Source: an uncultured Bacilli bacterium | GTDB lineage: Bacteria; Bacillota_I; Bacilli_A; RF39; UBA660 | Length of the DNA: 64,000 nt | NCBI GenBank assembly: GCA_934131175.1 | Contig: CAKOZD010000007.1 | Span: 62-64,061 of the forward strand | Direction: 5' to 3' | Shown: positions 6,777 to 55,919 of the stretch, piece after piece | Position numbering within the stretch: the stretch's first letter is position 1 | Layout of the letters: the number at the start of each line of letters is the position of its first letter | Translations under genes and position numbers: made by a program | Notes under the pieces: generated by a model | The model's input: the letters and a program-made list of their open reading frames with translations, nothing else | Told to the model about the DNA's origin: nothing | Databases searched by the model: none

Positions 6777-9494
6777 ATGAAAAAGATAGTTAATATAGTA
6801 TTTTATAAATATTTTAATGAAGAAGGAAAACAAAAACAGGCTTGCATATTTTATGATGATGGAACAGTTGCACAAGTATCCTATGAAGAAGGTATAGATG
6901 CTTGTGAAGAAATAGTTGCAGAAAAAAACATTACATCAAAAGATGCATTTAAAGAAATGATTAACAAAGATATGGTTCATGTTATGAGTGGAAAAGAATT
7001 TGAAAGAAGATTTAGTGAATTTTTTGCTAAAAGTTCTGAAGATTCTTTAGAAAATAAGCAAACACCTGTTGTTGAAAATCAAGAAGAAGATAAGAATGAT
7101 AGTAATGAGCCAATCATTGTACCAGACAGACAAGGACAAGAAATGCCAATTGTAACACCTGATAATTACGATACAGATGAATATGAATATGGAGAAACTG
7201 AAACACCACATATTGATGAAAATGATAGTACTCAAACTCAATTAGATGATGAGTTACCAGATGACTTTATAAGTGATGAGGAAGTAGAAAATAATAGAGA
7301 TAACAGAGAAGCAAGAAATGTTCCTCCAATAACACCTACACATCAAGATGAAGCAAGCGAAGAACAGCCAGAAACACAAAGCACTGAGCAACCTGTACCA
7401 ACAAATACAAACGATGATGATTCACACGAAGATAATAATGATGCTGATGCAGATGATAATGATTCTGATAGTGATGCGGATGATAATGACCCAGAAAATG
7501 AAAACGATGCAGAAAATGATAATGACAATGCTACTCCATCATCAAATGATGATTTAGAAGATGAGCTTGGAGAAAACATTGGAGATGATGATGAAGAAGA
7601 AAAAAAAGGATTCTTCAAAAAATTAATTGATAAATTTAAAAAGAACAAAATAGTAAAAAGAATTACTATAGGAGTTATTGCTTTAGCAACAGCAGCAGGA
7701 ATATTCTCTTGTGCAGCTCATAACACTAAAGATGGTCAAATGTTAAATAGTAATATTGCAACAGAGTCAACAACTGATGATGAAAATAAAGTTGATGATT
7801 CTGGAGTATTAGTTCAAGGAGATAATAGTTACTATGATAATTACTCATATGATCAATTACTTCAAGTAACTGATAGCGAACCACAAAAGAATGCAATGGA
7901 AAAATTAGGAAGCGTAGTAACTACATATAATGGTGACTTTGCAAGTGCTCATGTTGAAAGTGGAAAAGATATTAAAACAGCATTAACTTATGATGAAATG
8001 GTAGCATTACAACAAGCATATAACGATTATTCAAAAAAAGACTTACAAGCATACTTTAATGGAGCAGATATACGATCTACAGATTTAACAAGAGCATACA
8101 AATCTGCATCATTACAATTGATGGGAGCATATGTAATTGAAACAAATGAAAGTAAAGTAGATATGTCAAGTCTAATAACTACAGATGAAGGAAAAGAATT
8201 TTATAATAAATATCATACAATGTTCTTAGAAGCTAAGAATGCAACAGAAAAGCAAGATAAGTTAAATAAAATTAAAACTTTCTACGATGAAGTTAAAAAA
8301 GATTTCCCTATAACAGAAGATGTAAGAACAGAAGGTATTTCACATGCTGATAGTTATTCATCAATTACATCATATAAATTATCTGTTGCTCCAATGATTG
8401 CAGCAGGAGAAATGATGTGGCAAAACTTAGACCAAGATTTAACTCTTGATGATACATCTATAGACTTCTTAAATGATATAGGTCTTTGTAATTATGTAGA
8501 AAAAACATTCGAAAGAATTGAAACAATAGCATTAAGTGGAACAGAAGATGAAAAAAATCCATTATATGAGCAATATAAAAATGCAGTTGAAAAAATGTTA
8601 ACAGAAAAAGGAATCGCTGTTATTGATGATGAACATAGAGATTTAACTAAATTACAAGCATTCCAAGATGCAGTTAACTGGCATTTTAAAGAAGATGGAA
8701 GTCTTGAATATTCTGAAGAAACATCTTACTCAACAGATTCTTATCAAACAGTTTCATCTTATTCAGATTCAACAACTACTTATAGTGAAGATGAATCAAG
8801 AGAAAGTGTAAGTGCCGACGAAGTACCTGCTGATGAAAGAGAAAGATTAGAAAACGAAATTAATTCAGAAATAGATAGTGAAAACGAACAAGCAAAATCA
8901 GATGCAGAAGAAAAAGCTGAAGAAAATAGACAAGAAATGCAAGAAGAAGAAGACCAAAACGCTGATAAAATAGAAGAAGAAGTAAAACAAGATGATCAAC
9001 AATTACAAGATGATATAGATAAAGCAAATGACACAATTGATTCAAATAATAGTGATCAAGATACATCAAATGATCAACAAGTAAACGAGGATGATTTCCA
9101 CGGAACAGTAGATTTTGATGATGATCATTCAGATAGTAATGGAAACTTAGATGATTCAGTAGAAAATATTACAACTAGTCCAAGTGATGACCAAACAGGT
9201 CAAGACCTACCAGATCCTAATGAAACTGGTGCTAAGTTTGATGCACAACAAGATAACAGCAACACATCATCTGATAGTAGTTCATCATCAGATAGTAGTT
9301 CATCTTCAACACCAGAAGAGAGTGTTCCATCTACAAGTACAGATGGTGGAGATGTTTCAAACGATGGAGTTTATGAATACGAAGTTCCAGCAGAAGAGGC
9401 ATCACCTTCTAATGCAGACTTAGTAAATGAATATGTTGAGTCTCTTGCAAACCAAGACTCTTCATATGAATCAGACTATGTATATTTCAAATAA
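6777..9494 (+). CDS. large acidic (D/E/N/S-rich) single-pass membrane protein, unknown function
   Basis: GGGGGA RBS, 905 aa. One TM helix (ITIGVIALATAAGIFSCAA) separates the acidic low-complexity regions from a folded central domain. Confidence 0.8.
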   Translation: MKKIVNIVFYKYFNEEGKQKQACIFYDDGTVAQVSYEEGIDACEEIVAEKNITSKDAFKEMINKDMVHVMSGKEFERRFSEFFAKSSEDSLENKQTPVVENQEEDKNDSNEPIIVPDRQGQEMPIVTPDNYDTDEYEYGETETPHIDENDSTQTQLDDELPDDFISDEEVENNRDNREARNVPPITPTHQDEASEEQPETQSTEQPVPTNTNDDDSHEDNNDADADDNDSDSDADDNDPENENDAENDNDNATPSSNDDLEDELGENIGDDDEEEKKGFFKKLIDKFKKNKIVKRITIGVIALATAAGIFSCAAHNTKDGQMLNSNIATESTTDDENKVDDSGVLVQGDNSYYDNYSYDQLLQVTDSEPQKNAMEKLGSVVTTYNGDFASAHVESGKDIKTALTYDEMVALQQAYNDYSKKDLQAYFNGADIRSTDLTRAYKSASLQLMGAYVIETNESKVDMSSLITTDEGKEFYNKYHTMFLEAKNATEKQDKLNKIKTFYDEVKKDFPITEDVRTEGISHADSYSSITSYKLSVAPMIAAGEMMWQNLDQDLTLDDTSIDFLNDIGLCNYVEKTFERIETIALSGTEDEKNPLYEQYKNAVEKMLTEKGIAVIDDEHRDLTKLQAFQDAVNWHFKEDGSLEYSEETSYSTDSYQTVSSYSDSTTTYSEDESRESVSADEVPADERERLENEINSEIDSENEQAKSDAEEKAEENRQEMQEEEDQNADKIEEEVKQDDQQLQDDIDKANDTIDSNNSDQDTSNDQQVNEDDFHGTVDFDDDHSDSNGNLDDSVENITTSPSDDQTGQDLPDPNETGAKFDAQQDNSNTSSDSSSSSDSSSSSTPEESVPSTSTDGGDVSNDGVYEYEVPAEEASPSNADLVNEYVESLANQDSSYESDYVYFK

Positions 9495-25950: not shown

Positions 25951-26652
25951 ATGTCATACATAGAATTTAGTAAAGTAACAAAAGAATACAAAACGGGAGA
26001 TGTAACAATAAAAGCCCTAAATAATGCAAGTTTTAATATAGAAAAAGGAGAACTTGTAGTTATTGTAGGACCAAGCGGTGCTGGAAAAACAACTGCTCTA
26101 AATATTTTAGGTGGAATGGATTCTGTAACTCATGGAACTGTTTTAATAGATAATGAAAACATAAGTAATTATAAAAGGCAAGAGTTAACAGAATACCGTC
26201 GTGATGATATTGGTTTCGTTTTTCAATTTTACAATCTAGTCCAAAACTTAACAGCTAAAGAAAATGTAGAACTAGCTGTACAAATATCAAAAAATCCATT
26301 AGATGTTGATAAAGTACTAGATAGTGTCGGACTAAAAGAAAGAAAAAATAACTTTCCATCACAACTATCGGGTGGAGAACAACAACGTGTCGCAATCGCA
26401 AGAGCAATAGCTAAAAATCCAAAAATTCTTTTATGTGATGAGCCAACAGGAGCTCTTGACTATAAAACAGGAAAACAAATACTAAAATTACTTCAAGACA
26501 CATGTCGAAAAGAAAAAATGACTGTAATAATAATCACTCATAATGCCGCAATCGCTCCCATGGCCGATAAGATAATACATTTTAAGAATGGAACGGCAGA
26601 ATCAATTAAAATAAATGAAAATCCAACCCCAGTAGAAGAAATAGAGTGGTAG
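25951..26652 (+). CDS. ABC transporter ATP-binding protein (MacB/FtsE-like)
   Basis: Walker [10 protein letters not shown], signature LSGGEQQR, Walker B LLCDEPT. Confidence 0.9.
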
Positions 26653-40791: not shown

Positions 40792-43695
40792 ATGAAAAAT
40801 AAAAATGATAATATAAAAAATATTTATCAAAAATTTAAAGCAAGTAAAAAATTAGTTGCTGCAGCAGTAATTGCTTTACCGTTAGTATTTTCTATTAGTG
40901 GATGTGCAAAAGGAAAAGATGATACATTATGTTTGGTTGATTTAACAGATGAATTAGAAAATGATGCAAAATTGCTTACAATGGATGAAAGTAGTGAAAT
41001 TAACTTAGAAACAGAAGAAAAAAGCAAATTATTAGCAATTATAGATAAGAATCAAACTAAAGAAAATGATTTATATGAAGTATTTATAATTAATGAGGCT
41101 GGAAAAATATTTAATGGTAAAATGCAAGAAAAGTATTTAGATAATAAGAGTATAGATGAAATAGAAATAGATAAGGATACAGTAAGTAAAGTTTCAAAAA
41201 TATTATTTGATACAAATTTATCTACAAAAGATGACAATTCAAATGAGAACAATTTAAAAAGTGAGAGTTTTGTAATAACGAATTTTAGTGAAACTAAAAA
41301 TATAGATTCTAATGAAAATGAAATTATCTATATTGAAAATAATCAATTAAAAACAGGAACAATTGATTCTAGTAATTTATATGTTTTAGATGATAATAAC
41401 AATAATACTGAAGTAGAAAAATATATTGTTAATGTTGAAGGATTAAATTTAAGAAAAGAAGCATCAGTCCAAAGTGAAAGTGTTGATAAACTCAAGATTG
41501 GAACAGAAGTATTGGTTCTTGGACACGATAATGAAACATCTGATGCTCCTATGGAATGGTGTAATATTGCAGTTAATATAGATGGTAAGATAAAAAGAGG
41601 ATATGTTTGTAAAAATTTGTATGATGGTGGTAAAAAGATAAAATATTTATTAACACCAGAAGAATATAATGAACAAATTAATTCTCAAGAAGAAGTAATA
41701 GAAGATGTTATAGAGCAAGAACAAGAAGAGACTGAGCAAGCAAACCAAAAACCAAAAGAACAAGTATCAAACGTACAAAATAATACAGATAAAATGAATT
41801 TTGATTCGAGAATTTTTTACATTAGTTCGTCAAAAATATTAGAAAATGATTTTACAGAATTAAAAGAAGAAGCATCTACTTTTTCAAGAACTATTGAAAC
41901 TTTGGATGACAACACAATTGTATATATAAAGGCAAATGAAAATTCAAATTATGATTCGTGGATAAAAGTTCACACACTTAATGATAAAATAGGATATGTA
42001 TCGTCTGATTGTATATTTGATAAAGAAACAGGTCAAGCATTATCTAGTTATATAAAAAATAATTATTTTTCAAATGAATCTTCAGAAAAAGTATCTTCTC
42101 AAATTGAGCAACCTGAAAGTTTCTTGAAAAGTGAAAATCAAAATACTAAAGAATTAGAAAGTCAGGAAATAAAAGAATCTGATAATCAAGAAGAAAGTGA
42201 AGAAACCCAAAAAACAAATTTAAGAATATTTTATGTTAATGGTGCTATATCATCTGATGATGGCAGAGTTAATATAAGAAAATTAGCAGACTCTGAATCT
42301 GAACTAGTAGCTACACTAGATAAAGACACTCAAATATATATTGACTATACAGAAGCACTTGACAATGATGGATGGCTAAAAATATCTGGAATAAAGAATA
42401 GTGATGGACAGGATGAAGTTATATCAGGATATGTAAGTTCTAACTTTGTTTTTGATAAAGAGACTGAAAAAACAGTAAGGGAATTTATAGAAGAGAATGA
42501 AGTTGATGAAAATAATTTTTCACACAAAACAGAACTTAAAAAATTTTATGTAGATGGTTCAATCGATTGCGAAAGCGAAATCGTAAATATCAGAAAAGAT
42601 GCAACTGTAAATTCAGAACGTGTCTTAACTATAAATAATGGAACTCAAGTATATATTGATTATACAGCTCCGCTTGATAATAACGGTTGGACAAAAATAT
42701 GTGGCATAAAAACAAAAGATGGAAATTTTGAAAAAGTAGCAGGTTATATAAGTTCAAATTTTATATATGAATATGATGGTGAAAACTCTATAATGGATTT
42801 TGTAAAAAATAATGAATTAGAAAATATAAATAAAAATATAAACTCTGAATCAGAAAACGTTGAAGCACCATATGGTGATTATAAAATTATAGATATTTCA
42901 GAACACAATGGTACTATTGATTTTAAAAAATTAAAAGAAAATGGATATAATCAGATTCTTATTCGTATGTTCGATACATTTTTTATGTCAGATTATAGCG
43001 AAGACTCAATGAATAAAGTTGATCTTAAATTTGAGGAATACATAGAGGAATGTAAAAAATATGATATTGATTACGGCTTTTATATATATTCAAGAGCAAC
43101 TACAGAGAAAATGGCAAAATTAGAAGCAATAAAAGTATTATATTTATTAAATAAATATGATTTAAGACCAACATTACCTATATATTGGGATATTGAATCG
43201 CAAGAAAGTGAACCACTATATAGTGAAGAAGATGGGATAATAAATAAAGATGAAAAATATAGTTCACCAGACTTTATAAATTACTATCCAGAACAAGTAA
43301 TTAATAATTTTTATGCCTTTGCAGAAATACTTGAAAATTCAAATTATAAGGTAGGAATATATTCTGGAGATAATGTTTTAAATACAATAGACCCAGAAGG
43401 TGACAAATTAACTGGATATAGTGTATGGAACGCAAGTTATTGTTATGGAGAAACACAATGTGATTATGATGTTAATTACAAGACAAATAATTTAAAATAT
43501 GCAGGAGATACAGCTATTTTTCAATTTTCAGATACAGGGAGAATAGAAGGAATAAATGGAAATGTGGACTGTAATTATGGGAAGTATGATTATACAAAAG
43601 AAATAAAAGAAAATAATATGAATTATCCAATATCTTTTGATGAAATAAAAAGTAAACAAGAAGAAATATTGTCAGGAACAGAAAAATATAGATAA
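40792..43695 (+). CDS. lipoprotein cell-wall hydrolase: SH3b-like repeats plus a C-terminal GH25 muramidase
   Basis: Lipobox LVFSISGC. Four SH3b-like modules end in GY[VI]SS[DN][CF][IV]F. The C-terminal domain has IIDISEHNGTIDF...FQFSDTGRIEGINGNVDCNY, typical of GH25. Confidence 0.8.
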   Translation: MKNKNDNIKNIYQKFKASKKLVAAAVIALPLVFSISGCAKGKDDTLCLVDLTDELENDAKLLTMDESSEINLETEEKSKLLAIIDKNQTKENDLYEVFIINEAGKIFNGKMQEKYLDNKSIDEIEIDKDTVSKVSKILFDTNLSTKDDNSNENNLKSESFVITNFSETKNIDSNENEIIYIENNQLKTGTIDSSNLYVLDDNNNNTEVEKYIVNVEGLNLRKEASVQSESVDKLKIGTEVLVLGHDNETSDAPMEWCNIAVNIDGKIKRGYVCKNLYDGGKKIKYLLTPEEYNEQINSQEEVIEDVIEQEQEETEQANQKPKEQVSNVQNNTDKMNFDSRIFYISSSKILENDFTELKEEASTFSRTIETLDDNTIVYIKANENSNYDSWIKVHTLNDKIGYVSSDCIFDKETGQALSSYIKNNYFSNESSEKVSSQIEQPESFLKSENQNTKELESQEIKESDNQEESEETQKTNLRIFYVNGAISSDDGRVNIRKLADSESELVATLDKDTQIYIDYTEALDNDGWLKISGIKNSDGQDEVISGYVSSNFVFDKETEKTVREFIEENEVDENNFSHKTELKKFYVDGSIDCESEIVNIRKDATVNSERVLTINNGTQVYIDYTAPLDNNGWTKICGIKTKDGNFEKVAGYISSNFIYEYDGENSIMDFVKNNELENINKNINSESENVEAPYGDYKIIDISEHNGTIDFKKLKENGYNQILIRMFDTFFMSDYSEDSMNKVDLKFEEYIEECKKYDIDYGFYIYSRATTEKMAKLEAIKVLYLLNKYDLRPTLPIYWDIESQESEPLYSEEDGIINKDEKYSSPDFINYYPEQVINNFYAFAEILENSNYKVGIYSGDNVLNTIDPEGDKLTGYSVWNASYCYGETQCDYDVNYKTNNLKYAGDTAIFQFSDTGRIEGINGNVDCNYGKYDYTKEIKENNMNYPISFDEIKSKQEEILSGTEKYR

Positions 43696-44168: not shown

Positions 44169-45266
44169 ATGATTTATCTAACATCTATAAAAATATCATT
44201 CTTAATATTTCCATTTATTGCACTTTTAATAACAATTCCATATATATTAATACAATACCATAAGTATGGATCAATAAATAAATTAAGAGTTTTAATAGTA
44301 TATTCATTCATTTTGTATCTACTAACAATTTACTTTTTAGTAATACTTCCATTACCACCACTAGATCTTGTAAAGAACTTGACATCTCCAAAGTATCAGT
44401 TAATACCATTTAATTTTATAATTGATTTTATAAAAGATAATCCATTGGTATTAAATAATCCAAAAACTTATATAAAAGCACTGCTTGATCCGAATGTTTA
44501 TACAGTACTATTTAATATTATTATGACAATTCCGTATGGAATGTACTTAAATTACTATTTCAAAAAAGATTTAAAAACTGTTATAAAATATACATTTCTA
44601 CTATCATTATTTTTTGAATTAACTCAGTTAACAGGATTATATTTTATTTATCCTAGACCATACAGATTATTTGATGTAGATGACTTAATGATTAATACAT
44701 TAGGAGGAATAGTAGGTTATTTTATAATGAATAAATTAAAAATATTACTACCATCAAGAGAAGAAATAGATGAAAAATCAATAAATGACTCAGTAAATGT
44801 ATCAGTACTCAGAAAATTAACAAGTATTCTAATAGATATATTTATATACATAGTATTAATAACTTTTATAAATATATTTATAAATAATCAAATAATAAAT
44901 TATATAATATTAATAATTTACTTTATAATAATACCAACTATAAATAATAAAACCTTAGGAATGAGCTTTGTTAATATAAAGTATGATGTTGCAAATAAAA
45001 GAATATTAAGAATATCTCTAAGACAAGTAATTATATATTTATATTATATAGAACCTCCTAAAATTATATTTTATTTATTTAATGTATTGAGTATTGAAAG
45101 TAATATAAAAATCGTATTATATATATTAACAATGATCATTTTATTTATAGTTTATTTAGTAAGTATAATAAAATTTCTATTAAAAAAAGATTTATTCTAT
45201 GACAAATTATTAAAAGTAAATATTTTGAGTACTATAAAAGTTAATAAAAATGTAATTGAAGAGTAA
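44169..45266 (+). CDS. VanZ-like / RDD-domain membrane protein
   Basis: The N-terminal half has ELTQLTG...FDVDDLMINTLGGIVGY (VanZ-like). The C-terminal half is a polytopic RDD-like region. Confidence 0.65.
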   Translation: MIYLTSIKISFLIFPFIALLITIPYILIQYHKYGSINKLRVLIVYSFILYLLTIYFLVILPLPPLDLVKNLTSPKYQLIPFNFIIDFIKDNPLVLNNPKTYIKALLDPNVYTVLFNIIMTIPYGMYLNYYFKKDLKTVIKYTFLLSLFFELTQLTGLYFIYPRPYRLFDVDDLMINTLGGIVGYFIMNKLKILLPSREEIDEKSINDSVNVSVLRKLTSILIDIFIYIVLITFINIFINNQIINYIILIIYFIIIPTINNKTLGMSFVNIKYDVANKRILRISLRQVIIYLYYIEPPKIIFYLFNVLSIESNIKIVLYILTMIILFIVYLVSIIKFLLKKDLFYDKLLKVNILSTIKVNKNVIEE

Positions 45267-45284: not shown

Positions 45285-45316
45285 GAAGACATAGGTAAGG
45301 ATGTGGAGAGAAAAAT

Positions 45317-45351
45317 AAAACTAATGCAAGAATAATTGTATTAGTTTTTTT
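45317..45351. terminator. bidirectional rho-independent terminator
   Basis: 13-bp stem AAAACTAATGCAA/TTGTATTAGTTTT with one G-U pair, flanked by A and T runs. Confidence 0.75.
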
Positions 45352-45353
45352 GC

Positions 45354-45451
45354 AAAAAAAAGCGACTGCCTATGCAGTCTCTCAAATAAATGAGTATTTA
45401 GGGTAAAACCTTTATTTTAACTCTCTATGTCATCTTAAATGGTATTAAGAT
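45354..45451 (-). ncRNA. tracrRNA: tracrRNA (trans-activating CRISPR RNA)
   Basis: The minus strand carries a 25-nt perfect complement of repeat positions 9-33. It is followed by GAGUUAAAAUAAAGG (bulge, lower stem and nexus-like, as in the S. pyogenes tracrRNA), a CUCA/UGAG hairpin, and a GACUGC-AUAG-GCAGUC terminator with U8. Confidence 0.9.
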
Positions 45452-45457
45452 AATATG

Positions 45458-45486
45458 ATAATACCATATTGTAGGAGGTAAGTCAA
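45458..45486 (-). promoter_or_regulatory. tracrRNA promoter
   Basis: On the minus strand, TTGACT (45486-45481), 17-bp spacer, TATTAT (45463-45458). The -35 hexamer overlaps the first base of the cas9 ATG. Confidence 0.7.
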
Positions 45487-48400
45487 TGGCAGCAAAAAAA
45501 GAATATAATATTGGTTTGGATATTGGAACAACTTCGGTTGGTTGGAGTGTAGTTGAAGCTAATAATCAAAAAGTAATGCGTAAAGGTAATAAAGCACTTT
45601 GGGGAGTTAGACTGTTTGAAGAGGCAACAACTGCAGAATCAAGAAGAATGCAAAGAAGTACTAGAAGAAGATATGATAGAAGACGAGAAAGAATAAAATT
45701 ACTTCAAGATGAGTTTAGTGAAGAAATAAATAAAGTGGATGAAAAATTTTTTCAAAAGTTAAAAGAGTCAAAATATGTTGAGAGTGATAAAGAAAATAAA
45801 AAGATAATTTTAGCAAAAGAGGAAAAGAAAGAATTAAGAGAATATCAAAATAAATATAAAACTATATATCATTTAAGAGATGAATTAATAAATAATCCTG
45901 AAAAGAAAGATATAAGACTTGTATATCTTGCAATTCATCATATTATAAAATATAGAGGTAACTTCTTATATCAAAGTTCAAATTTTAATATAGATAATTT
46001 AGATATAAAAGATAAGTTAAATGAGTTATTTTCTGTACTTTCAAATAATATTCAAGAATTAGAGATACCAGAAGATTATACAGATATAATTAACTTAAGT
46101 TTATTAGAAAAGGATTTATTAAAAGAAACTAAAAATGATGTTAAAGCTTCACTAATAAATGATTTATCAGACATAACAAATAAGAGTTTTGCAACAGAAT
46201 TAGGTAAATTAATGGTTGGTAATAAAGGTAATATTAATAAATTATTAATGCTTGAAAGTGATAATAAAATTGAAATTAGTTTTAGCGGTACTGACTATGA
46301 TGATAAATATGAAGAATATCAAGATACATTAGGAGAAAATATAGAAATACTAGATATTTTAAAGCAAATCTATGACTGTATTTTCTTAAAAAAGATATTT
46401 AAAGGTAACCAAAATACGAGCATTTCAAGTTTGATGGTAAAATACTTTGAACAACATAAGAAAGATTTGAATTTCTTAAAAGAATTATTTAGAAATAATC
46501 GTGAATTATATAATTCAATATTTAGAACTAAAAAAGATTTATGTTTATATGACAAGTATATTACTAATAAGATAGATTATGATGAGTTTAAGAAAGAAAT
46601 TAATAAATTATTAGAAGAATTATTTAGTCACGAAGAAGTACTTATTGAACAAGATTTATTAGATGAGTATAATTTGAAGATAAAATCAAAAATTGAAAAT
46701 GGTAATTTTCTTCCTAGAATAACTACGACTGATAATGGTAAATATCCATATCAATTAAATAAATCAGAATTAATAAAAATAATAGAAAATCAAGGAAAAT
46801 ATTATCCATTCTTATTAGATAAAATAAATGACAATAAAACATATAAGATTGTTAAATTATTAGAATTTAGAATTCCTTATTATGTTGGTCCATTGGTATC
46901 TGAAAAAAGAAGCAAGAATGCTTGGCTAGAAAGAAAAATCAATGATATTAAGATAACTCCATATAATTTTGATGATGTAGTTGATAAAGAAAAGACAGCA
47001 GAAAAGTTTATTAAAAGAATGATTTCTCATTGTACATATTTATTGGATGAATACGCACTTGCGAATAACTCTATATTATATTCTAAATTTAAAGTTATGA
47101 ATGAACTAAAGCAAATAAGGGTAAATGATAGAAAGTTAGAATTGAAATTTCAACAACAAATATTAGAAGACTTTTTCATGAAGACATCTGGCACAATTAC
47201 TGAAAAGAAGTTTAAGAATTATTTAATTTCAACTGGTGAATGTAATATGGAAGGAGGAAATTTAAGAATAACTGGATATTCTGCAGATGGTAAGTTTGCT
47301 AATAATATGCAGTCTTATGTAGATTTCTTTGGAGAAAATGGAATATTTGCCGGTACTGATTATGATGAAGAAAATGCAGAAGAAATAATTGAATGGATCA
47401 CAATCTTTGAAGATAAAGATATTTTAGAAAAGAAAGTTAGAGATAATTATAGTAAGTTAAGTGAGAATCAAATAAAGAAAGTTTTAGCAAAGAAATATTC
47501 TGGCTGGGGAAGTTTATCTAAAAAACTTTTAAAAACTAAATATTATAAAGATAAAGAGACAGAATTATATAAATCAATATTAGATTTAATGTATGAAACT
47601 GAAAATAATTTTATGCAGATAATAAATAATGATAAATATAATTTTCAAGAAATGATACAAGAGTTTAATAATAGTAAAGAAAGTAAAAAATTAAATTATT
47701 CAATGGTCGATGAGTTAGCAACTTCTCCTGCAACAAAAAGAGGTATATACCAAGCCTTAAAAGTTGTAGAAGAGTTAGTTGATTATATTGGATATGAACC
47801 AAAAAATATTTCAATTGAAATGGCAAGAAGTGACGAAGAAAAAGTAAGAAAAGATTCAAGAAAAGACTATATTAAAAAGCTGTATGATAGTTGTAAAAAT
47901 TCAATAGATAATTATAAAAAATTGAAACATGAGTTGGATAGTCATGAAATAACTAGTCAAAGATTATTCTTATACTTTATTCAAGAAGGCAAATGTTTAT
48001 ATTCTGGTACACCATTAAATATCGAAGATATAGAAAATCAGTCTTTATATGAAATTGATCATATAATTCCAAGGTCATTAATAAAAGATGACTCAATTGA
48101 TAATAAAGCGTTAGTATTAAAAAAATGTAATCAAGATAAAAAGGCAAGTTACGTTTTACCGCCTCAGTTTAGAACTGAACATCAAATAGAATGGTGGAAA
48201 CGTTTAAAAGATAATCATTTAATGTCAGCAAAGAAGTTTTATCACTTAACAAGAAAGAAATATGATGAAGATGATATCAACGGATTTATCAATAGACAAT
48301 TGGTTGAAACAAGACAAATTACAAAACATGTTGCTAATATTTTAAAGAATTTACATAAGGATTCTAATATCATTTATTTGAAAGCCGACTTATCACACAA

Positions 48401-49523
48401 TTATCGTGAAAAGTATGATTTATTTAAATTTAGAGACATAAATGATTATCATCATGCTCATGATGCTTATCTTGCAGCTGTATTAGGTGAATATAAAGAA
48501 AAATTTATGAAAAGAAAAATAAATTTTGATATGGTTAGAGAACTTAATAATAAGATTGTTGAAATGGATGAAGGCAAAAGAAAAAATCTTAGATTTGGAT
48601 ATGTAATTAATAGTTTGGATGAAAATTTAAATGATATAGTTTTAAAAATTTCAGAAAACTTAGTTGATAATGAGACTGGTGAAGTATTATTTGATGCACA
48701 TGAATTTAATAAGAGAGTAGAAGATACTTTATATAGAAATGATATTATGGTTAGTAGAAAGACTGAGATAAGAGCAGGTGCATTTTATAAAGAAACGATA
48801 TATAAAAAAGGCAAAGGAATTATTCCTATAAAACTTGGTATGCCAACTGAAATATATGGTGGATATTCAAATACAAATACAAAAAAATTGATGCTCATTG
48901 AATATAATGAAAATCAGAAAAAAATTATTGGACTTCCAATGGCATTGGATGCAAGAAATAAAGATGATGAAATTAATGATTATATTAAAACACAGATTAA
49001 TTTGAAAAAAGATTCAACATTTAGTATAAAAAAATATTCTATTCCTTTTGAAACGGAAGTAATATATAATAATCAAAATGTTTTTATAAAAGGATATGGT
49101 ATAGTTCAAAAAAATTGTGAAGTGTCAAATGCAGTTCAATTAAAAATAGCAAAAGATAAGATGAAACATTGGAAATATGCACTTCAATATTTATTGAATG
49201 ATAAAAAGCAATATATTGAATATGCAGAAAAATATGTAAATGATATTTATGATTTTCTAATTAATTTAGATTTATTTCCGTTATTTAATAAAGAATTAGA
49301 TAAAATAAAAAATAAAGTTAATTTTGAAAATTTAGATTTAGATCAACAAAAGAAAATAATAAGTGAATTATTTAAGATGTTTCATTGTAACAGTGTTAAT
49401 GCTAATTTATCTGAATTTGGACTTGGTGATAGAATTGGACGCTTGAAAGGGAATAATATAACAACAGGTATAATTATTTCAAAATCTGTAACTGGAATAA
49501 GAGAGTCAAGATATGAGTTTTAG
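45486..49523 (+). CDS. cas9: CRISPR-associated endonuclease Cas9 (type II-A)
   Basis: 1345 aa with a GGAGG RBS. Contains RuvC-I IGLDIGTTSVGW (D12), the Arg-rich bridge helix RRMQRSTRRRYDRRRERI, RuvC-II ISIEMAR (E778), HNH YEIDHIIPRS...CNQDK (H859, N882) and RuvC-III DYHHAHDAYL (H990, D993). Confidence 0.97.
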   Translation: MAAKKEYNIGLDIGTTSVGWSVVEANNQKVMRKGNKALWGVRLFEEATTAESRRMQRSTRRRYDRRRERIKLLQDEFSEEINKVDEKFFQKLKESKYVESDKENKKIILAKEEKKELREYQNKYKTIYHLRDELINNPEKKDIRLVYLAIHHIIKYRGNFLYQSSNFNIDNLDIKDKLNELFSVLSNNIQELEIPEDYTDIINLSLLEKDLLKETKNDVKASLINDLSDITNKSFATELGKLMVGNKGNINKLLMLESDNKIEISFSGTDYDDKYEEYQDTLGENIEILDILKQIYDCIFLKKIFKGNQNTSISSLMVKYFEQHKKDLNFLKELFRNNRELYNSIFRTKKDLCLYDKYITNKIDYDEFKKEINKLLEELFSHEEVLIEQDLLDEYNLKIKSKIENGNFLPRITTTDNGKYPYQLNKSELIKIIENQGKYYPFLLDKINDNKTYKIVKLLEFRIPYYVGPLVSEKRSKNAWLERKINDIKITPYNFDDVVDKEKTAEKFIKRMISHCTYLLDEYALANNSILYSKFKVMNELKQIRVNDRKLELKFQQQILEDFFMKTSGTITEKKFKNYLISTGECNMEGGNLRITGYSADGKFANNMQSYVDFFGENGIFAGTDYDEENAEEIIEWITIFEDKDILEKKVRDNYSKLSENQIKKVLAKKYSGWGSLSKKLLKTKYYKDKETELYKSILDLMYETENNFMQIINNDKYNFQEMIQEFNNSKESKKLNYSMVDELATSPATKRGIYQALKVVEELVDYIGYEPKNISIEMARSDEEKVRKDSRKDYIKKLYDSCKNSIDNYKKLKHELDSHEITSQRLFLYFIQEGKCLYSGTPLNIEDIENQSLYEIDHIIPRSLIKDDSIDNKALVLKKCNQDKKASYVLPPQFRTEHQIEWWKRLKDNHLMSAKKFYHLTRKKYDEDDINGFINRQLVETRQITKHVANILKNLHKDSNIIYLKADLSHNYREKYDLFKFRDINDYHHAHDAYLAAVLGEYKEKFMKRKINFDMVRELNNKIVEMDEGKRKNLRFGYVINSLDENLNDIVLKISENLVDNETGEVLFDAHEFNKRVEDTLYRNDIMVSRKTEIRAGAFYKETIYKKGKGIIPIKLGMPTEIYGGYSNTNTKKLMLIEYNENQKKIIGLPMALDARNKDDEINDYIKTQINLKKDSTFSIKKYSIPFETEVIYNNQNVFIKGYGIVQKNCEVSNAVQLKIAKDKMKHWKYALQYLLNDKKQYIEYAEKYVNDIYDFLINLDLFPLFNKELDKIKNKVNFENLDLDQQKKIISELFKMFHCNSVNANLSEFGLGDRIGRLKGNNITTGIIISKSVTGIRESRYEF

Positions 49524-50385
49524 AACAGTTGTTATTACTAAACAATCTAAGATTAGTTATAAAAATAGATTTCTTGTAGTAAAACAGGAAAATGATGAGA
49601 AGTATATTCATTTATCAGAAATAGATACAATAATAGTAGATTCTATATCAGTATCTATTTCTGCATATCTTTTAAAAGAACTTGCAGATAATAAAATAAA
49701 TATAATATTTTGTGATGAAAAGCATAATCCATTTGGTGAAGTTGTTCCATATTACTCAAAACATAATACCAGTAAAATGATTAAAGAACAAATTAAATGG
49801 AAAGCATCTGACAAAGATAAAATATGGACAGAGATAGTAAAAAATAAAATTATGAATCAAGCTTTGTTGCTTAAGAAAACTAAATCATCAAAATATAAAC
49901 TGATTTTAAGTTATATTGATGAAGTTGTTGACGGAGATAAAACAAATAGAGAAGGTCATGCAGCAAAAGTTTATTTCAATGCTCTATTTGGAAATGATTT
50001 TGTTAGAAATTCAGATGATTCTATAAATGCAGCATTAAACTATGGATATGCAATTTTACTTTCAACAATCAATAAAGAAATTATTAATAATGGGTATTTA
50101 ACGCAACTTGGAATCCATCACAAAAATGAATTTAATGAGTTTAATTTAACTTGCGATTTAATGGAACCATTTAGAATAGTAATTGATAACTTTGTCTATT
50201 ATAATCAAGAAAGAAAACTTGATACAGAATATAAACTTGATATTGTAAATATTTTGAACGGAACTTTTAAGTATCAAGGAAAAAATTACACATTAAAAGA
50301 TATTATAAAAATGTTTGTAAAGAATACTTTAGAATCAATAAATAATTCAGAAAAATATAAGGAATTTGTATATTATGAGGGATAG
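49513..50385 (+). CDS. cas1: CRISPR-associated endonuclease Cas1 (type II)
   Basis: 290 aa, overlapping cas9 by 11 nt. Motifs include NREGHAAKVYFNALFG, ALNYGYAIL and GIHH. Confidence 0.93.
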   Translation: MSFRTVVITKQSKISYKNRFLVVKQENDEKYIHLSEIDTIIVDSISVSISAYLLKELADNKINIIFCDEKHNPFGEVVPYYSKHNTSKMIKEQIKWKASDKDKIWTEIVKNKIMNQALLLKKTKSSKYKLILSYIDEVVDGDKTNREGHAAKVYFNALFGNDFVRNSDDSINAALNYGYAILLSTINKEIINNGYLTQLGIHHKNEFNEFNLTCDLMEPFRIVIDNFVYYNQERKLDTEYKLDIVNILNGTFKYQGKNYTLKDIIKMFVKNTLESINNSEKYKEFVYYEG

Positions 50386-50389
50386 AGTT

Positions 50390-50695
50390 ATGAGGACAAT
50401 TGTATTTTTTGATCTTCCAAATGTGTATTCTAAAGATAAAAGAGCATATCTAATGTTCAGAAAGTTTTTGATTAATGAAGGGTTTATAATGATGCAAGAA
50501 TCAGTGTACTCAAAAATCGTTTTAAATTCTCAACAATCAAATGCTTTAGTTGAAAGAATAAGAAAAAAGGCCCCCCAAAAAGGTATAATACAAGTAATGA
50601 GTATAACAGAAAAACAATATTCCCAAATAGAATTTATTACAGGAAGTAGCAATAGTAAAATAATAAATAGTGAAGAAAGATTAATAGTATTATGA
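50390..50695 (+). CDS. cas2: CRISPR-associated endoribonuclease Cas2
   Basis: MRTIVFFDLP...MQESVYSK is the typical Cas2 ferredoxin-fold pattern. ATG 50390 follows a GAGGGA RBS, so the track's 50366 start is less likely. Confidence 0.9.
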   Translation: MRTIVFFDLPNVYSKDKRAYLMFRKFLINEGFIMMQESVYSKIVLNSQQSNALVERIRKKAPQKGIIQVMSITEKQYSQIEFITGSSNSKIINSEERLIVL

Positions 50696-51369
50696 AAATA
50701 AAAATAGACTTTATTGATTCAATAATAGATTTTGATAATTCAAATGTATATTCATTTGAGATACATAATAAAAAGTATTTATATAGAATTTCATCATTAT
50801 TTTATAGTATTAGTAATGGTGATTTACCAGAAGAGGTTGAATGCTTTGATAAAGATAACAATGAATTAAAGATAAGTAATAAAATAAGATTCTTTTCTGA
50901 ATATTTTGACTTTGGATTTGATTCTAAAAAATATTCAGCAGATATCACTAAATATATTTTATCTAATATAGAACAATATGATAGTGAGAATATTCTAAGA
51001 ACATTCTCTAAATTATGTAAATTAATTGATAATGAGTTACAGAAGACAGATTTATCAATATCAGTCTCTACAGAAGAAGGTATTGAAAATGTAATTAAAA
51101 TGTTTAAGATTAAAATAAATCAAAAAGAAGATTTACTAGATAATTTACTCTTAATAGTTGATTTAGAAGTTGCATTAAATTCTAATAAATTATTATGCTT
51201 TATGAATTTAAAACAATATTTAACTAAAGAAGAAGTAATTGAATTTTATAAATATGCAACATATAACTCAATAAAAATAATAATGATAGAATCTACTAAA
51301 TATGACTATTTTAGCAATTATGAAAAAGTTATAGTTATTGATCAAAGTTTAGATGAAAGTATGATATAA
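50692..51369 (+). CDS. csn2: CRISPR-associated protein Csn2 (type II-A marker)
   Basis: 225 aa, ATGA overlap with cas2. The call rests on its position between cas2 and the leader, and its size fits the short Csn2 family. Confidence 0.8.
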   Translation: MKIKIDFIDSIIDFDNSNVYSFEIHNKKYLYRISSLFYSISNGDLPEEVECFDKDNNELKISNKIRFFSEYFDFGFDSKKYSADITKYILSNIEQYDSENILRTFSKLCKLIDNELQKTDLSISVSTEEGIENVIKMFKIKINQKEDLLDNLLLIVDLEVALNSNKLLCFMNLKQYLTKEEVIEFYKYATYNSIKIIMIESTKYDYFSNYEKVIVIDQSLDESMI

Positions 51370-51449
51370 TAATTATAGATGAAATAGAATTTATCATTTA
51401 AGAGCTACACATCTCTATTACTGTAGTAGTAGAATTAAAACTATTTGAG
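51362..51449 (+). promoter_or_regulatory. CRISPR leader with candidate promoter and leader-anchoring motif
   Basis: TGaTATAAT (51362-51370) overlaps the csn2 stop codon. The leader ends in ATTTGAG directly before repeat 1. Confidence 0.7.
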
Positions 51450-54400
51450 GTTTTAGTTCTATGTCATCTTAAATGGTATTAAAACATACGATTGTTAGCA
51501 TCACCAATATATATCGTTTTAGTTCTATGTCATCTTAAATGGTATTAAAACTACTTCTACTAGTTTACCTCGATGTCCTTTGTTTTAGTTCTATGTCATC
51601 TTAAATGGTATTAAAACAGTACAACATTTACAATCATTAACAGACAAGTTTTAGTTCTATGTCATCTTAAATGGTATTAAAACCGGATTCAATAAATTAA
51701 ATACTGCTATCACGTTTTAGTTCTATGTCATCTTAAATGGTATTAAAACTGTAAACTTCTAGCAGTACTGCTATTTGCTGTTTTAGTTCTATGTCATCTT
51801 AAATGGTATTAAAACAATTAAATCATTTATTAAAAAATATTGTTAGTTTTAGTTCTATGTCATCTTAAATGGTATTAAAACATTTAAGCACTTTACTTAG
51901 AAAGAAAGTAGGTTTTAGTTCTATGTCATCTTAAATGGTATTAAAACAACTGCTCTCTATTCATATTTATTATTAATGTTTTAGTTCTATGTCATCTTAA
52001 ATGGTATTAAAACATTAGAGATATATAATCCCTTAAATTATAAGTTTTAGTTCTATGTCATCTTAAATGGTATTAAAACAACATTTGCAACAAACAATGA
52101 AAAAGATATGTTTTAGTTCTATGTCATCTTAAATGGTATTAAAACAATATGGGTTTGAATATTATAAAACAATATGTTTTAGTTCTATGTCATCTTAAAT
52201 GGTATTAAAACAATTAGGAAGTGCTGGAAAAGCAATAGGAAGTTTTAGTTCTATGTCATCTTAAATGGTATTAAAACTCCTGAGTCATATTCATAATACG
52301 TCTTCATGTTTTAGTTCTATGTCATCTTAAATGGTATTAAAACTTTCTTGTGATTGTGTAATAACTGGTTCACGTTTTAGTTCTATGTCATCTTAAATGG
52401 TATTAAAACGGCAATGGATATGGAATGTATGCAGATGACGTTTTAGTTCTATGTCATCTTAAATGGTATTAAAACTTGACAACACCCAAATAAATTACTT
52501 GATATGTTTTAGTTCTATGTCATCTTAAATGGTATTAAAACCTTAATTGTTCCATCTTCTAACTCACATACGTTTTAGTTCTATGTCATCTTAAATGGTA
52601 TTAAAACGAACTTTAATTATATATTTCTCGGCTTTCTGTTTTAGTTCTATGTCATCTTAAATGGTATTAAAACACTTAAATTCTTCTACGAAACCTACTG
52701 GAAGTTTTAGTTCTATGTCATCTTAAATGGTATTAAAACTTAGGAGAGGTTTTAACAGATGCTAACTTAGTTTTAGTTCTATGTCATCTTAAATGGTATT
52801 AAAACAATAAAAAATTAAACTTCTCTGGTCTTATTGTTTTAGTTCTATGTCATCTTAAATGGTATTAAAACTAGTACAGTGCTTATTAAAGTGCTAGAAA
52901 GGTTTTAGTTCTATGTCATCTTAAATGGTATTAAAACAAAGTATTTGAAGGAGAATATCAAGATATAGTTTTAGTTCTATGTCATCTTAAATGGTATTAA
53001 AACCTTATCCAAATTCATTTGATACGAATTATTGTTTTAGTTCTATGTCATCTTAAATGGTATTAAAACCGATGAAACAAGCCGTATAAAGGCTAATATG
53101 TTTTAGTTCTATGTCATCTTAAATGGTATTAAAACCTTAATACCAAGCGAATTAAATTGGGACTAGTTTTAGTTCTATGTCATCTTAAATGGTATTAAAA
53201 CGCTTATCCAAATTCATTTGATACGAATTATGTTTTAGTTCTATGTCATCTTAAATGGTATTAAAACACCCCTAGAAATTCAAGCCCTAGAAAATCAGTT
53301 TTAGTTCTATGTCATCTTAAATGGTATTAAAACCTTATTAATATTTCAAAAAATGGAATGCTTGTTTTAGTTCTATGTCATCTTAAATGGTATTAAAACC
53401 ATCATAAATAATAACAAGTTGCTTATCTTGTTTTAGTTCTATGTCATCTTAAATGGTATTAAAACTGATGATGACATACGTCTAGCATATCGAGGGTTTT
53501 AGTTCTATGTCATCTTAAATGGTATTAAAACAAAGTTAAAGTTAAAAGGAGAACTAAATAAGTTTTAGTTCTATGTCATCTTAAATGGTATTAAAACATT
53601 TGGAATCCAGTATTTATTAACTCCTGTGTTTTAGTTCTATGTCATCTTAAATGGTATTAAAACTGACCATTTGCACACTACGACTAAAGCAAAGTTTTAG
53701 TTCTATGTCATCTTAAATGGTATTAAAACTTCTTTAATGAATAAAAATCTTTCTTTTAGGTTTTAGTTCTATGTCATCTTAAATGGTATTAAAACGATAA
53801 CTAAAACACCAACTACACCTGCAATGTTTTAGTTCTATGTCATCTTAAATGGTATTAAAACAGTTTATTGTTACAATGGTTCGCAAGGAAAGTTTTAGTT
53901 CTATGTCATCTTAAATGGTATTAAAACCATCATAAATTATGACTAATTGCTTATCATGTTTTAGTTCTATGTCATCTTAAATGGTATTAAAACCATCTAA
54001 TTCATTTCTTAATTTTAAGAACTGTTTTAGTTCTATGTCATCTTAAATGGTATTAAAACATGATTTTCTCACAAATAGGCTTACGATACGTTTTAGTTCT
54101 ATGTCATCTTAAATGGTATTAAAACACCCTAAATTCCCAGGATATTTTGTAGTAGGTTTTAGTTCTATGTCATCTTAAATGGTATTAAAACATTTCCACC
54201 TCCTTATAATAAAATAAGGCTGTTTTAGTTCTATGTCATCTTAAATGGTATTAAAACAATATATTTTTCTAATTTCTAGTACAAAATGTTTTAGTTCTAT
54301 GTCATCTTAAATGGTATTAAAACAAATGAAAAAAACTTTATATTTAGTAAAAAGTTTTAGTTCTATGTCATCTTAAATGGTATTAAAACAACAGATAAAA

Positions 54401-54719
54401 ACATTAAAGTTTATCAAGGGTTTTAGTTCTATGTCATCTTAAATGGTATTAAAACTGATTGATGGCAAAGTCGCAGGATATTTTAGTTTTAGTTCTATGT
54501 CATCTTAAATGGTATTAAAACTAAAACTAAGCACTGATAGATACATGATAAGTTTTAGTTCTATGTCATCTTAAATGGTATTAAAACTGGAGCATGAACT
54601 ATACCAGTCCAATAATTGTTTTAGTTCTATGTCATCTTAAATGGTATTAAAACCAAGACATGAAACTGGAAACTGGACTTCTAGTTTTAGTTCTATGTCA
54701 TCTTAAATGGTATTATGAT
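51450..54719 (+). CRISPR. type II-A CRISPR array: 50 repeats (36 bp) and 49 spacers (30 nt)
   Basis: GTTTTAGTTCTATGTCATCTTAAATGGTATTAAAAC recurs at an exact 66-bp period from 51450 to 54618. The terminal repeat at 54684 is degenerate (…GGTATTATGAT). Confidence 0.98.
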
Positions 54720-54881: not shown

Positions 54882-55919
54882 GTGGTTCATATTAATACAA
54901 TAGATATAATTTACAAATTTTTAGAGGAACAAGACTATTTAAATAGAAAAGATGTACTAGGAATAATATTTTATGGTAGTTCAAATTATAATACAGACAC
55001 TAAAGATTCTGACTTAGATTTATTAATCATAACAGACGATGAAAATAATTATAAAGGTGTTACTTATATAGATAATAAAAAAATAGAATATTTTGAAAAA
55101 AATGTTTATGATTTAACACAAAAAATAGAAGAACTTCCAAATGGTTTTGATCGTTCATTAGAATCAATATTTACTAATGGAAAAGTAATCTATGACAAAC
55201 ATAAAACTATTGAAAATCTAAAAGATTTAGTTTTAGAAAACAACGAATATCCAAGAAAGAAAAACCAAAATAAATTCTATTCAACATGTTTTTCAGAATT
55301 TAAAAATGCTTTTTTTAGTACAGATAAAACATCTCCATATTTTAATTATATCTATTACAACTTCTTAGAAGAAATCAGAAAAGAATATCATATACAAAAT
55401 GGTTATTCAAAATTACCAGTAAATAAAATAAAAAAGTTATATGAAAACAGTGATTACTCTGAAAAATATTATTGTGTTAAATTGCCAGATGCTAACTTTA
55501 GAAATTTATATATATCTTTATTAGAAAAATATAAAGATGAAGACTTTAGTATTCTTTTAAGTAAATTAAAAGAAAAACAAACAAGAAAAAAATGCTTTAG
55601 CGTTCGAAAAAATAACATTAAGTATTCTAGTACCATAATATATAGCTTACTTGAGAAGATTGTTGCGAAAGATATAAATGAAAAAGACTATTTGTCACTA
55701 TACTATATAGCACTGGAAAAAATACGTAACTTATATTGTGATATTAATAAACTTAACAATTCATTAGATAATATCTATGAATATGATTCTTCATTTTTAG
55801 AAATTTTTAATGAATGTATATCAAATCCATCAAAAGAAAATATAACTTTACTTTTTAATTATTTATCATCAAAAATAAATATAGATTATAAAAATTATAA
55901 AATATATGAATTATCCTAA
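54882..55919 (+). CDS. Pol-beta-superfamily nucleotidyltransferase (KNTase/Lnu-like architecture)
   Basis: IIFYGSSNYNTDTKDSDLDLLI fits the GS-x10-DxD NTase motif, followed by a helical C-terminal domain. The GTG start has a weak RBS, so the start is uncertain. Confidence 0.65.
   Translation: MVHINTIDIIYKFLEEQDYLNRKDVLGIIFYGSSNYNTDTKDSDLDLLIITDDENNYKGVTYIDNKKIEYFEKNVYDLTQKIEELPNGFDRSLESIFTNGKVIYDKHKTIENLKDLVLENNEYPRKKNQNKFYSTCFSEFKNAFFSTDKTSPYFNYIYYNFLEEIRKEYHIQNGYSKLPVNKIKKLYENSDYSEKYYCVKLPDANFRNLYISLLEKYKDEDFSILLSKLKEKQTRKKCFSVRKNNIKYSSTIIYSLLEKIVAKDINEKDYLSLYYIALEKIRNLYCDINKLNNSLDNIYEYDSSFLEIFNECISNPSKENITLLFNYLSSKINIDYKNYKIYELS

Follow-up and report, generated by a model that had tools for sequence, protein, structure and literature searches.

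A predicted tracrRNA gene directly upstream of cas9 in a type II-A CRISPR-Cas locus of uncultured gut Bacilli

The tracr-S RNA of Streptococcus pyogenes SF370 is 89 nt long as a primary transcript and about 75 nt long after processing, and its start lies about 210 nt from the cas9 ATG. Further details, reported by Deltcheva (2011), Nishimasu (2014) and Briner (2014), include a gene upstream of cas9 on the opposite strand of a cas9-cas1-cas2-csn2-array locus, an anti-repeat that begins a few nucleotides after +1, a UAAAAU:GUUUUA lower stem beside an asymmetric bulge (crRNA 2 nt, tracrRNA 4 nt), and a AGUUAAAAUAA-GG core with a 3-bp nexus, more hairpins and a terminator. In most type II-A loci the tracrRNA is found upstream of cas9 (Chylinski et al., 2013; PMC3737331). 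The in-silico criteria for a tracrRNA in the same study were an intergenic anti-repeat near the cas genes of a type II locus, extensive pairing of it with the repeat, a promoter of its own and a Rho-independent terminator (Chylinski et al., 2013). Group 1 type II-A systems are marked by ATTTGAG/GTTT at the leader-repeat junction (PMC5382924), and tracr-L autoregulation has been documented for S. pyogenes-like II-A systems (PMC11417352).

A stretch of 64,000 nt of DNA (25% GC), referred to here as the window, carries a locus of this kind. The cas9-cas1-cas2-csn2-array block on its plus strand is a complete type II-A operon, each protein scoring above the cut-offs of its NCBIfam family, and the presence of cas1, cas2 and csn2 places it in subtype II-A. 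The element under study sits in the 219-nt gap between the end of a VanZ-like ORF (45266) and the start of cas9 (45486), an intergenic site that adjoins the intact type II cas locus. The surrounding features are as follows.

44169-45266: VanZ-like ORF upstream of the element, ending at 45266
45486-49523, plus strand: cas9, 1345 aa, SpCas9-like (TIGR01865, 837 bits)
49513-50385, plus strand: cas1 (TIGR03639, score above cut-off)
50366-50695, plus strand: cas2 (TIGR01573, score above cut-off)
50692-51369, plus strand: csn2 (TIGR01866, score above cut-off)
51370-51449, plus strand: CRISPR leader, 80 nt, ending in ATTTGAG directly 5' of repeat 1
51450-54719, plus strand: CRISPR array, 50 copies of the 36-nt repeat with 49 spacers, each 30 nt long

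The Cas9 protein matches SpCas9 chains over its full length (E about 1e-148), and its RuvC I-III, HNH and Arg-rich helix motifs are all intact. The repeat consensus is GTTTTAGTTCTATGTCATCTTAAATGGTATTAAAAC, which 49 of the 50 copies match exactly; the terminal copy is degenerate, with 3 mismatches. Because the leader ends in ATTTGAG and the degenerate repeat lies at the distal end, the array is oriented along the plus strand. The pre-crRNA is thus a plus-strand transcript, and an RNA from 45354-45451 must come from the minus strand to be able to pair with it. The locus has the exact ATTTGAG/GTTT junction of Group 1 type II-A systems and a Csn2 of the short form (225 aa), a likeness that concerns the array and adaptation side and not the tracrRNA itself (PMC5382924).

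The element was first proposed in a preliminary description of the DNA, which quoted a 98-nt minus-strand string identical to 45354-45451 and read it as a tracrRNA gene directly upstream of cas9. Its parts, with nucleotides of the RNA counted from +1, are given below.

45458-45486, minus strand: predicted tracrRNA promoter, with -35 TTGACT at 45486-45481, TG at 45466-45465 and -10 TATTAT at 45463-45458
45354-45451, minus strand: predicted primary tracrRNA, about 94-98 nt, +1 at A45451 and 3' end in the U8 run at 45354-45361
45424-45448, minus strand: anti-repeat core (nt 4-28), perfect complement of repeat nt 9-33
45414-45423, minus strand: GAGU bulge at nt 29-32, then the UAAAAU lower stem at nt 33-38, paired in RNAcofold with GUUUUA of repeat nt 1-6
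45402-45410, minus strand: nexus-like stem-loop GGU-UUU-ACC, pairs G42:C50, G43:C49 and U44:A48, with an AAA linker 5' of it
45381-45394, minus strand: hairpin 2, CUCA-UUUAUU-UGAG, 4 bp
45354-45379, minus strand: predicted intrinsic terminator, stem GACUGC/GCAGUC, loop AUAG, then GC and U8

The +1 lies 35 nt upstream of cas9 on the opposite strand. Nucleotides 4-28 (45448-45424) match the reverse complement of repeat nt 9-33 over all 25 nt. About 2e-8 such 25-mers would be expected by chance in a window of 25% GC, and no other same-sense match of at least 12 nt lies outside the array within the window. The anti-repeat is able to pair with the repeats of the pre-crRNA, of which 49 of 50 are identical. 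When the repeat and the 98-nt RNA were folded together in RNAcofold, 33 intermolecular pairs were formed at -53.3 kcal/mol. The program adds the wobbles G7·U32 and U8·G29, by which only A30-G31 are bulged; in the S. pyogenes style of reading, the same bases give a bulge of 2 nt (GU) against 4 nt (GAGU). The preliminary description had claimed the perfect 25-nt complement, the pairing of UAAAAU with GUUUUA across a small asymmetric bulge and the duplex geometry of S. pyogenes, and all three hold: the complement exactly, the lower stem with the same pairs in RNAcofold, and the geometry in the shared lower stem and the 2-nt/4-nt reading of the bulge. By analogy with S. pyogenes, the 25-bp upper stem of the crRNA:tracrRNA duplex is the presumed substrate of RNase III. 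An exact 14-nt reverse-complement match to the repeat at 44400-44413 (plus strand), inside the VanZ-like ORF, was set aside as probable noise, about 0.11 such matches being expected by chance.

The S. pyogenes tracr-S and the RNA predicted here share their place upstream of cas9 on the opposite strand of a cas9-cas1-cas2-csn2-array locus, an anti-repeat a few nucleotides after +1, the UAAAAU:GUUUUA lower stem with its 2-nt and 4-nt bulge, and the AGUUAAAAUAA-GG core followed by a 3-bp nexus, more hairpins and a terminator. They differ in several respects. The linker is AUAAAGG here, with one extra A, and AUAAGG in S. pyogenes; the nexus is GGU-UUU-ACC here and GGCUAGUCC in S. pyogenes; and the sequences of hairpin 2 and of the terminator are unrelated to those of S. 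pyogenes. The upper stem is a 25-bp perfect duplex, unlike that of S. pyogenes, the tracrRNA start lies 35 nt rather than about 210 nt from the cas9 ATG, and there is no sign here of a second, tracr-L promoter. The tracrRNAs predicted for II-A by Chylinski et al. (2013; PMC3737331) likewise share the defining anatomy and the location upstream of cas9; unlike that set, the Cas9 clade here is one of uncultured gut Bacilli MAGs, of Clostridium sp. CAG:451 and of Ca. Coprovivens.

Rfam family RF02348 (tracrRNA), a covariance model of the Streptococcus-type tracrRNA, matches the element over its full length (model positions 1-92) at 45356-45450 on the minus strand, including the AGUUAAAAUAA-GG core, and the region of the lower stem and bulge aligns with AAGUuAaaaU of the family consensus. 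The match scores 30 bits (E = 0.18), below the gathering threshold of 70, and the element is thus a divergent relative of the RNAs modelled by RF02348, not a member by the Rfam cut-off. No hit to the repeat or tracrRNA strings was obtained in the searchable literature or in the supplements to the 79-ortholog Cas9 catalogue (PMC7606464).

Related loci provide a means of asking which parts of the element are kept. They were brought in by Cas9 searches and comprise L001-L011 from GTDB genomes (Clostridium sp. CAG:451, uncultured Bacilli MAGs and a Ca. Coprovivens MAG; Cas9 56-91% identical), L012-L020 from metagenome contigs, and L021-L024, four more distant loci (Cas9 64-71% identical). The Cas9 of the window is itself absent from the protein collection, where its best match is 97% identical; the lineage is one of uncultured gut Bacilli. 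In each of the 22 related loci whose sequence extends upstream of cas9 (Cas9 56-98% identical), the element keeps its location and strand, while the flanks beyond the terminator are drawn from several unrelated contexts with different genes. Among the 19 distinct tracrRNA sequences, the window included, the anti-repeat core is invariant (19/19), and nt 29, just outside it, varies. In the alignments nt 2-28 and nt 30-40 are invariant, and L024 is one A shorter in the linker before the nexus.

The hairpins of the 3' part vary in sequence and keep their pairing. Pair counts were taken from an alignment made with R1, a covariance model built from a hand-specified structure to which the 19 sequences were re-aligned; a MAFFT alignment was put aside for this purpose since it misaligned the stems of L004, L008 and L009. 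R1 scores the element at 122.6 bits and the rest of the window at 36.5 bits or less. Across the three helices, 96.8% of 247 pair-cells are standard pairs (19 sequences), compared with 25-50% of cells when the partners are slid by 1-3 columns. Changes on both sides are found in 11 of the 13 pairs, which was reached by 0 of 500 shuffles, a statistic that overstates the significance because the alignment was fitted to the model structure and the relatedness among the sequences is fairly close. Despite this inflation, the compensatory pattern remains plain from the slid controls and from the raw sequences. All 6 pairs of the terminator stem covary, with 100% of cells paired, and all 4 pairs of hairpin 2 show changes on both sides in some relative, with 89.5% of cells paired. 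The nexus is paired in 100% of cells in the 19 sequences, with a single compensatory change, G43:C49 to C:G in L009. An alternative nexus register given by RNAalifold (A41:U52, G42:C51, G43:C50) is broken in L009, and the register G42:C50, G43:C49, U44:A48 was preferred. Modules of the Cas9-binding type (a bulge, a nexus and at least one hairpin) are thus present in the 3' part, the nexus with its one compensatory change.

Folded alone, the RNA has an energy of -21.9 kcal/mol (z = -3.75 against shuffles). In a terminator scan, the GC-rich 6-bp stem at 45379-45364 was the 1 hit found, compared with 0.1 expected in shuffles. The nexus-like segment, short hairpin and intrinsic terminator that had been described beforehand were therefore all located, with stems that are kept in the relatives.

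As the anti-repeat is invariant, the intermolecular duplex is without true covariation, and it is the repeats that vary. The repeat variant A32G (L006, L021) gives a G·U pair with tracrRNA U5, C19U (L022, L011) gives a U·G pair with G18, and changes of repeat position 8 to G or A (L009, L022) fall in the bulge, so that all three kinds leave the duplex with the unchanged anti-repeat intact. A fourth variant, T21C, found in 2 of the L002 repeats, would place C opposite A as a mismatch.

The predicted promoter lies directly upstream of the RNA start. It has a 17-nt spacer ending in TG and 6 nt from the -10 box to +1, and agrees with the motif in 10 of 12 positions along with the TG extension (motif scan). 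At the 25% GC of this region the scan gives no excess of promoter-like hits (6 found, 8.9 expected in shuffles), and it is therefore conservation that argues for a promoter at this site. The arrangement TTGAC[AT]-17/18-TGnTAnnAT-6 nt-purine is kept in 14 of 14 distinct upstream sequences, one of them with TTTACA as its -35 box. The purine after the 6-nt gap begins the conserved RNA, and the sequences of the spacer and the discriminator vary among loci. The TTGACT-17-TATTAT promoter that the preliminary description had placed at the right distance was accordingly found at 45486-45458 on the minus strand, with a geometry conserved in the relatives. The anti-repeat is thereby framed by a predicted promoter of its own and a predicted Rho-independent terminator, and each of the in-silico features listed by Chylinski et al. 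(2013; PMC3737331) is found at this element.

Judged from its sequence and that of its relatives, 45354-45451 (minus strand) is very probably a functional tracrRNA gene of a type II-A, SpCas9-like system, as had been proposed; the position, the covariation, the promoter geometry and the repeat variants of the relatives all support this reading. It is an ordinary and expected part of such a system, and there is little surprise in it. In the proposed mechanism, a sigma-70-type promoter with an extended -10 would fire leftward from about A45451, and an RNA of ~95 nt would end at the intrinsic terminator (45354-45361). Nucleotides 4-38 would pair with each 36-nt repeat of the plus-strand pre-crRNA, and the 3' part (bulge, nexus, hairpin 2 and terminator hairpin) would be the scaffold bound by Cas9. 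By analogy with S. pyogenes, host RNase III would then cut the 25-bp upper stem to yield the mature crRNA, and the crRNA:tracrRNA pair would guide Cas9 to DNA. We infer transcription, RNase III processing, the binding and dependence of Cas9 and the exact RNA ends from these motifs and this analogy. Of the window ORFs examined, none was recognised as an RNase III gene. The ORF at 25951-26652, which lies beside an ORF of 1185 aa and with it resembles an rnc-smc pair by size, is an ABC transporter ATPase accompanied by its permease.

Other readings of the block can be considered. It might be mainly the cis-regulatory region of cas9, that is, a promoter, operator or 5' UTR acting on the plus strand, with the complementarity to the repeat being secondary. 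The block does abut the Shine-Dalgarno sequence and start codon of cas9, no separate cas9 promoter is evident, and there are plus-strand hexamers within it (ATGTCA-16-GATAAT at 45427-45454 and GATAAT at 45457-45462). However, the G·U pairs, the U-run after a GC-rich stem and the TGnTAnnAT-6-R arrangement work only on the minus strand. The terminator G:U and U:G pairs of the relatives become non-pairs on the opposite strand, and together with the downstream U-run and the sense of the anti-repeat they all point to the minus strand as the RNA strand. The plus-strand -35 and -10 candidates are unconserved beyond the constraint imposed by the anti-repeat and the minus-strand -10 box, and a 5' UTR would give no reason for a 25-nt perfect complement of the repeat. 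This reading is therefore very unlikely as the main role of the block, which may have a dual role as tracrRNA gene and cas9 cis-regulatory region.

Similarly improbable is a silent relic, a solitary inverted and degenerate repeat left by an array rearrangement beside a fortuitous hairpin and T-run. In its favour, Rfam family CRISPR-DR22 scores the anti-repeat (25.2 bits) almost as highly as the true repeats (29.8 bits), and the score of the Rfam tracrRNA family is below its threshold. A relic would decay, yet while Cas9 differs by up to 44% the anti-repeat shows no change at all and the linker before the nexus only the loss of one A in a single locus. The hairpins carry compensatory substitutions, and no locus departs from the promoter geometry. 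All of this contradicts the reading. The least probable reading, with hardly any chance of being right, is that of a tracr-L (a natural single guide) repressing the cas promoter as in S. pyogenes, or a scaRNA-type partner: although such autoregulation is documented in S. pyogenes-like II-A systems (PMC11417352) and the Cas9 here is SpCas9-like, the motif scan found only one minus-strand promoter upstream and no second one, the DNA upstream of +1 consists of the Shine-Dalgarno and coding sequence of cas9, with a 9-mer that coincides with the -10 region as its sole repeat-like segment, there is no lower-stem partner, and the 187-nt extended transcript shows no single-guide fold.

With the block read as a tracrRNA gene, its tight packing against cas9 raises the question of how cas9 is transcribed and whether both genes are co-regulated. 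The tracrRNA -35 box (45481-45486) lies between the cas9 Shine-Dalgarno sequence (GGAGG, 45474-45478) and the ATG, which it overlaps by 1 nt, the A of the ATG being the complement of the first T of the box. Because of this position no separate cas9 promoter fits between the two genes. In most related loci the -35 box abuts or overlaps the cas9 start codon; in L005 and L007 it is a few bases away. A plus-strand GATAAT (45457-45462) overlaps the minus-strand -10 box TATTAT (45458-45463) by 5 bp, and with this overlap -7T and -11A of both promoters are reciprocally base-paired. An 18-bp geometry of this kind is common for bacterial bidirectional promoters (PMC10268837). It is conceivable, though on balance doubtful, that the tracrRNA and cas9 are fired from one such pseudo-symmetric bidirectional promoter. 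If so, cas9 transcription would start at about 45468-45469, with a leader of 17-18 nt in which the Shine-Dalgarno sequence would be retained. RNA polymerase would then take one orientation at a time, by which the Cas9:tracrRNA ratio would be coupled and limited without a tracr-L circuit. Contrary to this, the plus-strand -35 is poor, and in the relatives the plus-strand hexamer has 3 to 5 of 6 matches, which is only what the symmetry imposes. Alternatively, cas9 would be read through from upstream, in which case its 5' UTR would be antisense to the tracrRNA along its full length.

An AT-rich hairpin (CTAATGCAA / TTGTATTAG) followed by T7 is found at 45310-45345 on the plus strand, just after the VanZ-like ORF and back to back with the tracrRNA terminator. 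This hairpin probably terminates transcription of that ORF and, if working, argues against read-through transcription of cas9. The 3' ends of the repeats (e.g. 51474-51482) and the plus strand of the anti-repeat (45438-45446) contain TGGTATTAA, which resembles an extended -10 (TGnTATAAT) with A replacing the final T, a weak match. Repeat-internal promoters are known in some type II-C systems.

The tracrRNA completes the parts list of an uncharacterised clade of SpCas9-sized Cas9 proteins that is common in human-gut Bacilli MAGs. The conceptual gain is small, as a type II-A system is expected to have exactly such an RNA in such a place; the practical one is that a defined tracrRNA allows a single guide to be designed and the enzyme to be assayed for its PAM and activity. 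It had been claimed that the guide could be written directly from the sequence, and a design was made by joining repeat nt 1-16, GAAA and tracrRNA nt 21-97: N20-GUUUUAGUUCUAUGUC-GAAA-GACAUAGAGAGUUAAAAUAAAGGUUUUACCCUAAAUACUCAUUUAUUUGAGAGACUGCAUAGGCAGUCGCUUUUUUU. Its predicted fold is the expected one, with a repeat:anti-repeat stem, the nexus and two hairpins.

The targets of the array were searched for in three ways: the whole array has no match among 50,697 phage records, two spacer patterns have no match in IMG/VR, and the spacers have no self-targets within the window. Some spacers resemble each other. Spacers 24 (53004-53033) and 27 (53202-53231) have 29 of 30 nt in common with a shift of 1 nt and were taken from the same protospacer, and spacers 30 (53400-53429) and 38 (53928-53957) are identical at 25 of 30 positions, as if taken from two variants of one target. 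Neither pair has a match in IMG/VR, and no part of the array matches the phage collection. Upstream of the locus, an ORF of 967 aa at 40792-43695 (plus strand) matches no NCBIfam family, and directly after the array an ORF at 54882-55919 (plus strand) has a weak nucleotidyltransferase (MntA / HalB-like) similarity that lies well below cut-offs.

The distal end of the array recalls the anti-repeat. In L024, where the tracrRNA and the cas genes are intact, the array (about 8975-9010) is a single repeat ending in ...TTAAGAT, the same letters with which the anti-repeat ends on the plus strand. Similar ends are seen in the terminal repeats of the window (54684-54719, ...TTATGAT) and of L017 (...TTACGAT). 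The anti-repeat may have been derived from a terminal repeat of this kind, or the likeness of the three ends may be a coincidence.
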